A stretch of 64,000 nucleotides of DNA from an uncultured Nitrospiraceae bacterium (lineage in GTDB: Bacteria > Nitrospirota > Nitrospiria > Nitrospirales > Nitrospiraceae): NCBI GenBank assembly GCA_963706325.1, contig CAVPLT010000001.1, forward strand, positions 448,001-512,000, written 5' to 3'. Positions 18,134-27,825 of this stretch are shown piece after piece. Position 1 is the first letter of the stretch. The number at the start of each line of letters is the position of its first letter. Both the position numbers and the translations under genes were made by a program. The notes beneath the pieces are model-generated. The model searched no databases, had not been told where the DNA came from, and worked only from the letters and a program-made list of their open reading frames with translations.

Positions 18134-21100
18134 TCATGCGGTCAGTTGCTCGATGCGGCGTAGCATCGTCTGGATGTAGCTGTCTTGGTCCTCCTCTTGG
18201 AACAGGATGTGCCGCTTATTCATCGCCTTCTTGTCCACCCCCCAGAGCATCTTCATGGTATGCGACGGCGTGTTTGAAATGATGAATGAGTCCAGCACCA
18301 CCTTCGGATCTCCGAGCCGCTGCTCGATCTTCTTAATTGTCCTCGTAAAACTGGATCTTCAGATCGTCCGCGCCGATGTTTCGGATGCCCTTCGGATCGA
18401 CGAAGATCACATGCTGACTATCACCCAACAGCAGCCACAGGATGAAGTCGGGGTGGAAGTTACCGGCCTCAAAGAAGCCGACGCCGCGCCCCTTGCTCAG
18501 ATTGCGAAGCAGGTAGAGCTCCCTGCTCTTGAAGAAGTCGACGTTGTCCATCATGGAATGCCTTGAGATCCTCGACGAACTGGCGCTCGCCCTTGTTGAG
18601 CGGGGCGGGGCTGATCTCGACAATGTTCGTGTCCAGATAGAGCAGTGGCTGATACAGGTGTCTGCCGAACCAGATGGCCTTCATGCCCTGGAACTCCCAA
18701 GGCTTGAGGTCACCCTTCTCGATCGCGGCCTTGAGCTCCTCGAGCTTGGCGACGATCTCTTCCTGCGATTTGTCGATCAGGATGCGGTAGTAGCCCTTGT
18801 CCGGTGATTCCTTCACGCACAGGAAGTTCGGATCGTCTCCCTCCAGATCGCGATACTCCAGGTGCGGCAGCTCCCACTCACGCTTGCGGAAGGTGTAGTA
18901 GCGCTCGGTGTACTTCTTGAGCAGCGACAAGGCGATCTCTTCCCACAGCCGCACCTTCTCGAATGAATCGAAGGCCAGCTCCTCGGCGGGAATCAGCAGC
19001 CGGTACCAGCTCTGATCGGCGAGCAGCGCCTCGATTCCCTGCCGCGTCAGGTTCAGGTTGTACCAGCCTCGCTCCGCCTTGAACCGCTCCAGCTCGAAGT
19101 AGAGGCGGTCGAGATCGAGGAAGGCCACATGCCGGGCGCGTCAGAGTGAGTCTCATTCGGCACGGCATCCGCGTCACCGCCCACCAGGCCGCCCGACTTC
19201 ATCGCCTGGATCTTCGGGTACCAGTTGAGTACGACCTGGTTCTTCTGCAGGTACTCCGTCGCTCCGATCGTCCGGCGGGGTCCGGCTTGGCCAGTGTCGG
19301 CACCGGCGCAAGCTTGCGAAACGCGTCGCCGAACTCGGTGCTCACGCCGTTGATCGTCTTCTTGAGGCGGATCGTCTTGAGCTTCTGCGTGCCGAGGTTC
19401 TTGATGACCGGCAGCAGGAACTCGATGCGGTCGTCGTTGGTGGGCAGCCCCTCCTCTTCGAGGAAGTCGCGGAACTGCGCCATGTAGTCGGCGTGGATGC
19501 CGAAGATGCCGAGCGTCTCCAGCACGCTGATGTGCTTGGGTCGCTCGACGCCTTCCGGCAGCTGGGCCTTGCCGCTGCGCTTGAGGCTCATGTCGTAGCC
19601 CTTGAGGCGCACGCCGCGACCGAAGAGCTGGATGATCTGCGCGCCTTCTCCCTTGCCGACGTTCATCAGGCCCATGGTGCGAGACGCGCCAACTGCTCCA
19701 GCCCTCGGTGAACTTCTTCGAGCCGATCAGCAGGTTCACCGTCGAGTGCGGCTGTATTGATCTCGTGGAAGAGCGATCCCGAGAACTCGCGATCGCCGGT
19801 GGCGAGGCCGTTCTCCTCGCACAGCTTCACCAGCTTGGCATCGTCGCCCACGTTGATGACGCCGAAGGCCTCGTTCTCGGCGCCCAGCCGCAGCGCCACT
19901 TCGCCGGTCGCGCCCTTCAGGTTCTCGACGTAGAGCTGGCCGCCGCCCGGCGCGTTGAAGAGCGTCGCGAGCGTCTCGTCGAAGACCTGCGCCGGCGAGA
20001 GGCCACACGTGTTGAGATACGTGAAGCGCCCGGCAAACAGGTTCTTGCCCGTCGCGGTGACGAGCCCCTGGTTCAGCACGCGCTCGATGCGCTGGATGCT
20101 GCCCGTCCGGTCTGCCACGTAGCGGGCCAGGAACTGCAGGATCTCGACGATGTCCGAAGCATCCCGCGTCGCCAGCGTCGCTGTCACACTGCCGCCGACG
20201 AAGATCCACAAGCGGCTTCTCGATGTTGAATGGCCGGAACGACGCCTCCTGTTCGCGGTACAGCCGCTGCTGCTGAAAGAACGACAGCAGGCAGGCCACC
20301 AGATACAGCTCCAGGTGGTTCTGCTGCGTTCCCTCGTCGAGGTTCAGGATCTGGTAGTCCTTGCCGAAGCCGTCGCCGTAGAAGTAGCGGTAGGAGTAGT
20401 CGAAGAGCGTGCTCTTGGCGTAGAGCTCGGTGAGCTTGGGCTTGCCCTTGACCGCCTGTCCGAACGTGGCCGAGTACTCGAACGAGAAGCCCTTCTCGCA
20501 GAGCGCGTTGCGGAAGCGCATCCACGCGCCTTCTTCGCCGCCGCTGGCGCCACGATGGCCCTCGTCCACCAGCACCAGGTTGTTGCCCTCGAAGGCGTCG
20601 ATGGCGATCGTCTTGTCGCCCATGTCCTCGCGCAGCCTGGTGACTTCGAGGATCTCGACCGCGCGCCCGGCGAAGAGTCCGCGCCCGTCCTTGTTGAACA
20701 GCTCCGCGTCGATGCCTGCCGTCTCGAACTCGCGCAGGTGCTGCTGCGACAGCCCCTCGTTGGGCGTGAGCAGGAGGATGCGGTTCAGCTCGCGGCCGCC
20801 GGCCATGCTTCTCCAAGCTAGTGCTGATACTGGAGGATGTTGGCGTGCATCAGCAGCGTCTTGCCGCTGCCGGTGGCGCTCCAGTAGGCCAGCTTGTTGA
20901 GCTGCGGCCAGGCTTCGGCGGCCTCGTCGAAGGGCGCAATCTGGTCTGCCTCAGGCTTGTCCGCATTGTAGGCGGCCACCTGCGCGTTCAGCACCGCGAG
21001 CAGCGCCTTGGGATCGCGGAAGTAGCGGTCGAGGTAGATCTCGGTGAACAGCAGCGTCAGGTACTGGAAGTACTTCCAGACGATCGGCTCCTCGCCGCGC

Positions 21101-21442
21101 GTAATGCGTTGCTCGTTCAGTCGCTGCGTGTGCCGTGACGATGTTCTGGTCGTATTCCAGCAGCAGATCGGTGGGCAGGTGCGTCAGGTTGAAGAGTTGC
21201 GCTGTGAGCGCGTGATGGAAGTGATGAATGTTGTTCTCGTCCAGACCTTCGAGTGCCTCGTTCCGCAGGTGCTCGGCCAGCTCCTCGAAGCGCTTCACGT
21301 TGAACAGCGAGAGCAGCCACTGGTTGAGCACCAGCTTGTAGGCGAACGGTATCTGTGGCCGGTTGTTGGCGCGACCGCGCGGCGCGGTGGGTGCGGCGGC
21401 GGTCGCTCCAGTGGCGTTCCTGCGTGGACGTCCGCGCGGCAT
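18134..21442 (-). CDS. res: Type III restriction endonuclease Res subunit, split by about 8 frameshifts
   Basis: Stitched fragments give ATGSGKT Walker [18 protein letters not shown] and C-terminal FHPDF...FVDPKG nuclease motif. Confidence 0.85.
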
Positions 21443-22596
21443 CAGCGTCTCTCCTCGTCGGCCTGGCGCGCATCGATCAGCCGCCGTTCGCGTTCGATCT
21501 CGCGCGTGAGCTCCCGTTCAGTCGGCAAGACTTTGACATACTTGGCGGCGAAGATCTGGCTCCCCTCGTTCAGCACCGAGTACTTCGCGATGGCCTCGTT
21601 CTTCTTCGAGCACAGGATCAAGCCAATGGTCGGGTTGTCACCCTTGGGCCGCGCATGGGCGTCGAACATGCGCACGTAGGAATCCATTTGGCCGATGTCC
21701 TGGTGGGTGAGCTTGCCGACCTTGAGGTCGATCAGCACGAAGCATCGGAGCAGGTAGTTGTAGAACACCAGATCGACGTAAAAGTCCTCGTCCTCAAATC
21801 GCATCCGTCTCTGCCTCGCCACGAACGAGAAGCCCTTGCCCAACTCCAGCAGGAAGGCTTGCAGATTGTCGATAATGGCCTGTTCCACCGTCGATTCGCG
21901 CAGCGCCGGATAGTCCTTCAGGTCAAGGAACTCGAGCACGTACGGGTCGCGGATGAACTGTTCCGGCGTAACGGCAGCGAGCTTCTCCCGGGCTTCCTTG
22001 CGGACCGGCACTTTCCTGCGACTGGCCAGCAGCCGCTCGTAATAGAGCACCGCGATCTGGCGCTCGAGCTGGCGGGTGGACCAGTGTTGGTCTGCGGCTT
22101 TGTTCATGTACCACTCCCGGGCCGCCGGGTTCTCCACCTGCATCAGCAGCCGATAGTGGCTCCAGCTCAATTCATCACAGGCCCTGTGGCGAATGGGCTC
22201 GACGCCGGAAGCGAGACGCGCCGCGTCTCGTTTCCTCTGGCCTGATTCGAGACCCACTGCGTCTCGAATCTCGAACATCCGGTAGAACTGCCGCATCTTG
22301 CGCAGGTTGGTAATATCGAACCCGCGGCCGAACTCCGCCATGAGCCGCCGCGAGAGGTTGTCCAGCACTGCCTCACCGTACGCGGCGCGTTTCGCCCCGC
22401 CTTGCTCGTCCTCCACGATGAGGCGTCCGATGTGCCAATAGGCCTGCACCATCGCCGCATTGACGGCGCGGTAGACCCCGGCGCGAGCCGATTCGAGGAC
22501 AGCCCGGATCTCCCGATACAGCGGGTCGGCGGAGCGAGAGACGGCAGGACGGGGAGAACGGGAGACGGGGTGACGGGGAGACTTGAAGCGAGCCAT
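21442..22596 (-). CDS. YhcG / DUF1016 PD-(D/E)XK nuclease-domain protein
   Basis: [70 protein letters not shown] overlaps upstream TAA. Confidence 0.92.
22540..22582 (+). repeat. Octamer tandem array, consensus GACGGGGN, 5 units
   Basis: gacggcag gacgggga gaacggga gacggggt gacgggga gac. Confidence 0.85.
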
Positions 22597-23025
22597 TAAT
22601 CCTTGCTTCCCTTTGTTTCCACTGTCCAGCGATCGGCTTGATTGATCACGGTCACCAGTTGGGAAAGGATGTGTTCGTACTGGGTATCCAGCTCCTTTGC
22701 CCGATCCGATTCCATGTAACCACAGCGCAGCGCGAACTCGATCCAAGTCTGAGTTTCACACGCTTCGCTTTCGGCATCACTCAGCTTCGCGATGAAGGCA
22801 GCCTCGTAACGACGCTTTCTCCACGCCTCGGCGATGTTGGCCGCGACGGAACGCGAGACCGTCGGATCTGGTCGGTCATGCTATACCGCTCTTCCATTGG
22901 AAAGCGCTTGGTCACTTCAAAGACTGCCATCCCGGCATCCATCGCGTTCTGCCAAACCCGCAAATCGTGATAGCCCTTGATCTGCCCTCTCTCCCCGTCG
23001 CCCCGTCCCCCTGTCGCCCCGTCTT

Positions 23026-23029
<4 letters not shown>
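22596..23029 (-). CDS. Four-helix-bundle protein (23S rRNA IVS protein / bAvd-like family), one frameshift near 22856
   Basis: [12 protein letters not shown]...[16 protein letters not shown](S)[41 protein letters not shown]. Confidence 0.9.
22992..23023 (-). repeat. Octamer tandem array, 4 units, inverted relative to 22540-22582
   Basis: tccccgtc gccccgtc cccctgtc gccccgtc on + strand. Confidence 0.85.
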
Positions 23030-26453
<3,424 letters not shown>

Positions 26454-26490
26454 CGGCTTTCCCATTGTTGGCCGCGTCGTGCCGGCTGGT

Positions 26491-27738
26491 TCATATCGTC
26501 TCCCACAGGGCGCGGATGGGGACGGCATACAGTCCATCGCCAAATCCCGCGCTCGTCTCTCCGTCGTACAGCACAATGCCTGCGGCGAATCGCTTGCCTG
26601 CGGCATCCTTCAGCTTGCGCATGCCGCGAAAGTCCGCCGCGGTCACCGTGGCCGATGCTTTCACCTCCACTCCGGCCACTTGGCCGGCGCCGCGTTCCAG
26701 AACGAGGTCTACTTCGGCGCCGTCCTTGTCGCGATAGTGGTAGAACCGGATCTCCTCCTTGTGCCAGCTTGCCTGTCGGCGAAGCTCCTGGAACACGAAG
26801 GTCTCCAGCAGCTGGCCAAGCGTGCCACGGTCCTGTATGAGTGCGGAAGCGTCGAGACCCAGCAACGCACAGGCGAGTCCGGTGTCGCCCACATGCAGCT
26901 TCGGCGTTTTGATCAGGCGACTCAAACGGTTGCTGTGCCATGGCCGGAGCTCTTCCAGAAGAAATACCCTCTCGAGGAGTGTCACGTAATCGCGGATGGT
27001 CGGGCGGCTCAGGTGGAAGGGGCTCGCCAGATCGCTGATGTTGATCAGCCGGGCTGTCTGGCCGGCAGCAAGCGCCAACAATCGAGGGAGTGCGTCAAGT
27101 GAGGCGATGCGCGCCAGGTCACGGACATCTCGCTGGACGAGCGTCTCGATGTAGTCGCGATACCAGGCGGCCCGGCGGTGAGGAATGGATCTGGCGAGCG
27201 CCGCCGGATAGCCGCCGGCGGCGATGCGTTCGGCCAATGTCTTGCCCAGACGTTCAGCCTTGCCGGCCTTGAAGGCCCCGGCGAACAGTGTATCGAGAAA
27301 GCGCGGGAGGCGCTCGGTCAACTCACACTGCGCCAGCGGGTGCAGCCGCAGGAGGCCCATGCGCCCGGCCAGCGAGTCGGCAAGGGCCGGCAACAGCAGC
27401 ACATTGGCCGAGCCTGTGAGCAAGAAGCGGCCGGCGACACGCCGCCGGTCCACCGCCGACTTGAGCGTACTGAAAATGCCAGGGGCCCGCTGTACCTCAT
27501 CGAGAATCACCCGTTCCGGGAGATCGGCGACAAACCCTACCGGGTCGGCCATCGCCGCCGCGAGTGTCACGGCGTCATCGAAGCTGAAGTAAGCACGATC
27601 CCGCTCACGGCCGGCGGCCTGCGCCAGCGTGGTCTTGCCGCACTGGCGCGGGCCGTGGATCAAGACTACGGGCGTATCGGCCAACGCCTCGACCAGGCTA
27701 GGCTCGGCAAAACGGGGGTAGATGCGGTCAGCGGGCAT
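26491..27738 (-). CDS. AAA_14 ATPase with DUF4143 C-terminal domain
   Basis: GPRQCGKTT, ILDEVQ, LTGS, DSLAGR, GGYP, KTPKLHVGDTGL, EVDLVLE...GVEVK. Confidence 0.92.
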   Translation of the reverse strand: MPADRIYPRFAEPSLVEALADTPVVLIHGPRQCGKTTLAQAAGRERDRAYFSFDDAVTLAAAMADPVGFVADLPERVILDEVQRAPGIFSTLKSAVDRRRVAGRFLLTGSANVLLLPALADSLAGRMGLLRLHPLAQCELTERLPRFLDTLFAGAFKAGKAERLGKTLAERIAAGGYPAALARSIPHRRAAWYRDYIETLVQRDVRDLARIASLDALPRLLALAAGQTARLINISDLASPFHLSRPTIRDYVTLLERVFLLEELRPWHSNRLSRLIKTPKLHVGDTGLACALLGLDASALIQDRGTLGQLLETFVFQELRRQASWHKEEIRFYHYRDKDGAEVDLVLERGAGQVAGVEVKASATVTAADFRGMRKLKDAAGKRFAAGIVLYDGETSAGFGDGLYAVPIRALWETI

Positions 27739-27741
27739 ACC

Positions 27742-27825
27742 AGCCAGTTGTAATCTTGCATGGCGGCTGATTGCAATAATATAGCTCGTCCGATTGCAAG
27801 GTTATATCACGGCCCATTGCAACCT
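27742..27825. repeat. 23-bp-period degenerate direct repeat with TTG(C/T)AA core, 4 copies
   Basis: TTGTAA at 27748; TTGCAA at 27771, 27794 and 27817. Confidence 0.75.

Follow-up and report, generated by a model that had tools for sequence, protein, structure and literature searches.

An operon-borne PF05635 four-helix-bundle gene framed by inverted octamer arrays: a widespread gene-plus-array unit with possible binding sites for a predicted pentamer

In a 64,000-nucleotide stretch of DNA from an uncultured Nitrospiraceae bacterium (the window), we identified a cassette that consists of a frameshifted copy of a widespread four-helix-bundle (FHB) gene and a pair of inverted octamer arrays around it. 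We tentatively read the arrays, with somewhat less than even confidence, as binding sites for the predicted pentamer encoded by the gene itself. The FHB-plus-array unit is widespread, apparently unpublished and related to the ORF-bearing intervening sequences (IVS) of rRNA. To our knowledge, the PF05635 family, for which structures have been solved since 2006, has no known function, and we know of no explanation for the short 7-8-base tandem repeats of bacteria either.

Open reading frames and profile matches gave the minus-strand order mod, FHB gene, yhcG and res, with the following features:

23026..26606, minus strand: mod, Type III-like (N6_N4_Mtase), split by a frameshift near 25640
23303..23385, minus strand: gene-less inverted heptamer arrays inside mod
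22596..23029, minus strand: FHB gene (PF05635 / TIGR02436; clade with an invariant WRKRRY), frameshifted at 22854-22855
22990..23023, minus strand: left arm, four octamers plus GA, in total five GA anchors with a period of 8; mRNA strand purine-rich; codons 3-13 of the FHB gene
22781..22783, minus strand: premature stop, codon 83 of the FHB gene, after the frameshift
21442..22596, minus strand: yhcG (DUF1016_N plus YhcG_C PD-(D/E)XK domain), intact, 384 aa
22540..22582, minus strand: right arm, about five octamers in reverse complement; mRNA strand pyrimidine-rich; first yhcG codons after MARFK
18161..21442, minus strand: res, Type III-like, in pieces with at least seven frame changes; assigned by similarity to proteins of genome G011 and locus L048

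A preliminary description of this DNA had placed the unit between mod and res. It does sit between operon genes, but its right arm adjoins yhcG, and res follows 1.1 kb further on. The overlapping stop/start codons that had been taken as translational coupling are present at every junction (ATGA at 23029-23026, TAATG at 22598-22594 and TGATG at 21444-21440). However, compared to intact homologues, one base is missing from the FHB gene at 22854-22855, and because of the resulting stop at codon 83, ribosomes on this gene would fall short of the TAATG junction. The intact ORF described before is thus not there: both halves of the gene match the family profiles in different frames, with 55.2 and 39.6 bits for PF05635 (cut-off 33.8) and 62.4 and 29.6 bits for TIGR02436 (cut-off 24), and a tblastn search of the 4.24-Mb genome returned this broken gene as the single FHB gene, with no intact copy. 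There are intact FHB relatives (144 aa) that are 93-94% identical over the C-terminal half and whose N-terminus still derives from the arm.

Frameshifts also affect the surrounding restriction-modification genes. While the flanking SNF2 and AAA ORFs are whole, mod, FHB gene and res (18161-26606) together show about nine or more frameshifts, including the frame changes of res relative to the intact G011 proteins. One contig of run X8, which is possibly the source sample, covers the FHB break with 0 differences to the window, and contigs of three other runs have one base fewer near 21135 in res; decay and assembly error are both possible. No promoter or terminator was found at the cassette, the Rfam search of window positions 21000-24000 gave no match, and no joints skipping the cassette were listed in the four DNA runs. 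Run X1 yielded two variant contigs, with 1 and 21 differences, across the FHB end, the right arm and the yhcG start (window 22416-22713); a related allele of the FHB-yhcG junction is present in that soil sample. The RNA runs contain only 0.07-0.10 of the words. Further repeats in the window comprise a 23-base tandem repeat (2.6 copies, 27764-27822) between the SNF2 helicase and AAA/DUF4143 genes, and two short palindromic repeats, 36 nt apart, in yhcG within the span of the DUF1016_N match (22204-22266).

The inverted arms (22548-22581 and 22990-23023) are 34 nt long, 85% complementary and 408 nt apart, and the period-8 arrays comprise 5.7 and 3.9 copies. This bears out the inverted octamer arrays described in the first codons, but the units are degenerate, as three of four in the left arm and three of five in the right arm fit GACGGGGN exactly. 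Each arm contains GACGGGGNGACGGGG once, and these are its two occurrences in the 4.24-Mb genome; the octamer motif was found nowhere else in this genome. As had been proposed, the complementary ends could form a stem that encloses the ORF: the predicted RNA fold pairs both arms (z -4.05; 0/100 shuffles as stable), and arm-arm pairing as RNA is predicted to be strong (-64.6 kcal/mol). We also considered an RNA G-quadruplex, given four GGGG runs in the left arm here; it was ruled out as a general feature, since the commonest units have no such runs.

FHB loci were gathered from genomes (80) and metagenomes (79), of which 138 with full flanks formed the testable close relatives. For each locus, the upstream flank was paired with the reverse-complemented downstream flank, and the threshold was the 99th percentile of control values from 1317 shifted windows (10 above). 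Inverted arms passed at 118/138 loci, and the direct orientation passed at 23/138; flanking inverted arrays, which had been suggested as a check on homologues, are present around most of the close relatives. Period 8 was found in 113 of the 118 passing loci. In the set drawn from the genome's relatives (28 FHB loci, 27 matching the profile, 24 testable), 12 passed, 11 of them with period 7; these are genes of other clades. In a broader set, 56 of 83 testable loci passed, with period 7 in 42, period 8 in 12 and period 6 in 2. On a quick tree with long branches and a sample biased around the query, the period changed twice compared to 10.6 times in shuffled data, which links period to protein clade. 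The idea that a one-residue-longer loop between helices 2 and 3 sets period 8 was ruled out, because six period-8 loci have the short loop. The relatives are spread over many bacterial phyla. With the patterns used, no FHB relative was found in viral contigs, where 73 stretches match an octamer pattern.

The loop between the arms has a median length of 422 nt. By a rough count, an in-frame start follows the left arm at 95/104 loci and the right arm at 66/90 (5 clearly inside, 19 unclear). Arms inside codons are therefore a minority layout across the class, and not the design rule that this locus had suggested. The neighbours of the FHB gene, based on Pfam scans of 64/121 upstream and 70/115 downstream ORFs, are very diverse. 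The gene splits operon pairs such as Cas1|Cas2, ScpA|ScpB, LexA|IMS and YebC|RuvC, and further biotin carboxylase|carrier, kinase|regulator, CheC|CheD and HlyD|AcrB; a position of family genes between cas genes is mentioned in the available part of an earlier report (PMC3936711). Given this diversity, and with both the FHB copy and res broken here, the proposed tuning of res expression is not supported.

Comparison with related loci showed that the FHB gene is a separable insert, since relatives have empty mod-res and mod-yhcG junctions. In G011, a genome of the same genus, mod is joined straight to res by GTGA, and the FHB gene, yhcG and a 66-nt heptamer hairpin in mod are all absent. G019 and G179 likewise have a mod-res junction without the FHB gene, so that mod-res loci lacking the cassette, which had been proposed as a test, do exist, and G086 and G083 join mod to yhcG without it. 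Conversely, mod is followed by the FHB gene and res without yhcG at L048 and L276, where the right arm forms the first codons of res; L199 (mod-FHB) has the same layout, and L219, L240 and L242 carry FHB-yhcG in another system. Other relatives have unrelated genes at the mod-res junction, which suggests that it is a general cargo site. The ends of the cassette are not sharp: yhcG of the empty allele starts with MARRK and that of the window with MARFK followed by the arm, and this likeness places sequence of host-derived look inside the arms. Neither fixed ends nor a target duplication were seen against the diverged empty alleles, which are too distant for an exact test. An insertion sequence or MITE does not fit, as the genome holds one copy, arm sequences vary between loci and no duplication was seen against empty alleles. 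Within mod of the window, the segment 23320-23385 is a 66-nt in-frame insertion relative to G011 that consists of gene-less inverted heptamer arrays (hairpin fold z -2.8).

In another Mod family, cassettes of the heptamer type lie inside the gene itself, at one site, at three loci (L006, L302 and L351). The inserts measure 483, 483 and 456 nt compared to 45 nt in empty alleles, and 20/21 orthologues are empty at this site. The nested FHB cassettes are out of frame with the host Mod gene. Nevertheless, the Mod frame is open across all three inserts at 55-77% DNA identity, with the FHB frame better conserved, against a background of 3/171 other loci and 2-4% of recodings. L394 looks like a fourth nested case, and the four genomes belong to different families and phyla. 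An open host frame would mean that neither splicing nor obligatory cleavage is needed, and judging from the reading frames the insert may be translated through.

These nested copies bear on the proposal that the cassette acts as an mRNA intervening sequence, in which RNase III would cleave the stem formed by the paired arms, thereby freeing the small gene and separating or destabilising the cistrons on either side. The long predicted stem would fit, and so would the helix-45 IVS of the Coxiella burnetii 23S rRNA. In the accessible part of the report, this IVS carries a decaying S23p ORF of the same family with tandem heptamers just upstream of its start, and a 28-bp terminal stem that is cut by RNase III in vitro (PMC4990558). 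However, a cut at our locus would hit the coding start of yhcG, at L048 and L276 the start of res, and at L006, L302 and L351 it would fall in mod, whose frame is kept open; the cassette also has no Rfam match. The composition of the arms speaks against it as well.

Across the class, the consensus unit reads GA, C or A, a free base, C or G, GG and a free base, and the stem is 34-36 nt long in 35/104 loci. If an RNA stem were under selection, G·U pairs would be expected to outnumber A·C mispairs. The arms show 171 G·U versus 172 A·C at 104 loci, and 88 versus 118 at 56 loci of the broader set. As controls, tRNA acceptor stems (10:2) and U-tailed hairpins (17:5) differed from the arms (Fisher p 0.001) and two sets of other hairpins gave 87:61 and 61:46, the controls with a G·U excess being small or weak; a cruder positive control of 81 hairpins behind long ORFs on either strand showed no excess (44:43), and the earliest one comprised 6 hairpins only. 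Where both arms have five anchors (23 loci), between-arm identity was 0.694 in register and 0.682 out of register, identity within arms was 0.69-0.71, and units from foreign loci reached 0.55. Because the first three values are nearly the same and exceed that for foreign loci, each locus amounts to two arrays of one local motif and not to a tuned helix; unit positions 4 and 8 pair in 57-59% of cases. The arms do not resemble an RNA helix under selection, and together with the open host frames this makes an RNA-level intervening sequence quite improbable.

A different regularity emerged from the number of anchors. Without any score filter, the longest period-8 chain of GA in the left flanks has five members in 43/123 loci, compared to four in 17 and six in 14, and the longest TC chain in the right flanks has five in 49/123, with 17 in each neighbouring class. 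A chain of five was found in 3/385 control windows, and there was no five-anchor peak at periods 7 and 9. Five anchors are the mode and not the rule: 80/123 left and 74/123 right flanks have another number. Both arms have five anchors at 23/123 loci, where 17 are expected under independence.

Arrays also occur away from an FHB gene, and an FHB gene also occurs as cargo of another element. In G086, we counted 193 matches to the octamer pattern genome-wide and 52 arrays of 4 to 16 anchors in 40 regions (L434-L473), while two PF05635 genes score over the cut-off. Most of these arrays are solo and 3 have an inverted partner within 700 nt, which indicates that arrays spread without the gene. The solo arrays are of the GAATSGGT type and often lie beside other short repeats and small hairpins. 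In G490 (L404-L421), the FHB gene, mostly with stops, is cargo of a multi-copy element with a transposase-like ORF, whose left end is common to 14/16 loci among those listed. Both genomes thus point to routes that do not need a self-moving cassette.

Such cases could mean that the arrays are a by-product, namely minisatellites that arise by slippage, are mirrored by template switching and spread by themselves, with the gene as a passenger that does not read them. The abundant solo arrays of G086, the gene-less heptamer hairpin in the window's own mod, the FHB gene inside a repeated transposase-bearing element in G490 and the equal identity within and between arms all agree with this explanation. 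It would leave unexplained, however, that the arms frame the gene at narrow spacing and fixed polarity, that the period follows the protein clade across phyla and that the motif is confined to the cassette in the window's genome. We therefore consider a pure by-product fairly improbable.

The structure of the protein offers a link to the five-anchor mode. The model of an intact 94% relative (P0003) has four helices (pLDDT 89.5), and in Foldseek it matches 2GSC (E 9e-7) as well as 2RLD, both of which contain five chains; a weaker match is Avd (E 0.02, TM 0.90 on target, 11% identity). Among the closest known systems are the PF05635 / TIGR02436 members Xcc0516 (PDB 2GSC) and BT_0352 (PDB 2RLD), as the two halves of the window FHB gene pass both cut-offs and the fold of the relative is alike. 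Compared to 2GSC, the invariant WRKRRY loop of the window clade is one residue longer, and the flanking inverted arrays are not mentioned in the accessible parts of published PF05635 accounts. A resemblance of PF05635 to Avd of diversity-generating retroelements is noted in the available part of a previous study (PMC10053308), and Avd structures (PDB 4DWL, 8UB7-8UBE) have a fold like P0003 and are, as far as these sources were available, pentamers that contact nucleic acid. In the accessible text on one such structure, each of the five protomers touches an RNA stem-loop, and flipped-out bases lie in the crevices between protomers (10.1101/2023.10.23.563531). Unlike in these retroelements, neither a reverse transcriptase nor a template repeat was found beside the FHB gene, whose neighbours are mod, yhcG, res, an AAA protein and an SNF2 helicase. 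Taken together, the repeat-bounded, separable PF05635 cassette of the preliminary description is supported by the empty junctions, the arms of the close relatives and the Avd-like fold.

By analogy to these structures, the FHB protein may be a pentamer and a binder of the arrays. The equal numbers of anchors and subunits, five each, suggest that every subunit of the predicted pentamer would take one GA anchor. Because the motif is on one strand at the left end and on the other strand at the right end, the simplest ligand is DNA, and reading of the arrays by the protein would likely take place on DNA. As the FHB gene is broken here, any binding at this locus would depend on an intact gene elsewhere. 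The insert could survive in operons because ribosomes would read on by way of overlapping stop/start codons or an open host frame, and the arm codons, as disordered linkers, may be tolerated. No recognisable nuclease or recombinase is encoded in the cassette, which therefore likely moves with outside help, which may come from host recombination, transfer of restriction-modification islands or insertion-sequence cargo.

Several observations stand against a pentamer on DNA. Avd, the closest functionally studied relative, binds RNA; the fixed polarity with the purine-rich arm on the left follows the direction of transcription; the arms pair strongly as RNA, and RNase III, according to the available part of that report, cleaves within the stem of the Coxiella 23S member (PMC4990558); and the MARFK start of yhcG, similar to MARRK of the empty allele, lies inside the arms.

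RNA could be read in another way. The TRAP ring provides an analogy for a pentamer that wraps single-stranded RNA, and the FHB pentamer might wrap the purine-rich left arm of its own mRNA, and the right arm would then be a loose antisense competitor through which translation of both the gene and the next cistron is switched. The left arm is more purine-rich than the right at 104/104 loci, and its 3' end precedes the domain start by a median of 30 nt; unit positions 6-7, with GG, are similar to a ribosome-binding site; and in G086 the direction of the purine-rich strand agrees with that of the upstream ORF in 23 cases and is opposite in 11. The five-anchor mode and RNA binding by Avd through all five protomers, as given in the accessible text, would agree as well. 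On the other hand, the right arm has a five-anchor mode of its own, which would be invisible to a reader of the mRNA strand only, and G·U should be better tolerated than A·C in an antisense arm, but the counts show no G·U excess. We regard such autoregulation as unlikely and retain binding of the arrays on DNA as the tentative reading.

Among described elements, ORF-bearing 23S rRNA IVS come closest, as in the available part of the literature they share the protein family, complementary ends, tandem short repeats and an ORF that can decay. In contrast, our cassette lies between mod and yhcG, in an mRNA operon and not inside an rRNA gene, has period 8 and arms that overlap codons, and its arm statistics carry no signal of RNA-helix selection. 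Bacteria also contain dispersed short tandem repeats, such as the heptamers of cyanobacterial STRR and REP-like elements. These are alike in having 7-8-base units and in being intergenic and often solo or hairpins, whereas the arrays here come in inverted pairs that enclose members of one gene family, and their period is linked to the clade. In titles and the opening parts of abstracts, which cover few subscription papers, inverted arrays around PF05635 genes were undescribed outside 23S rRNA IVS.

This copy is a poor model for experimental work, as the FHB gene and the restriction-modification genes around it are frameshifted. A more general claim, which we rate as doubtful, would be that PF05635 proteins are sequence-specific five-fold rings reading five anchors spaced 7 or 8 bases apart. 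Under this claim, the gene and its inverted arrays would be an undescribed mobile unit distinct from both transposons and introns, which inserts at operon junctions or even within ORFs and leaves translation unbroken, with 23S rRNA IVS and dispersed 7-8-base repeats as its offshoots. The rRNA intervening sequences may also be argued to be a special case of the gene-plus-array unit. For the family as a whole, the link between gene and arrays provides a candidate ligand: five GA anchors, at period 8 in this clade and at period 7 in others.
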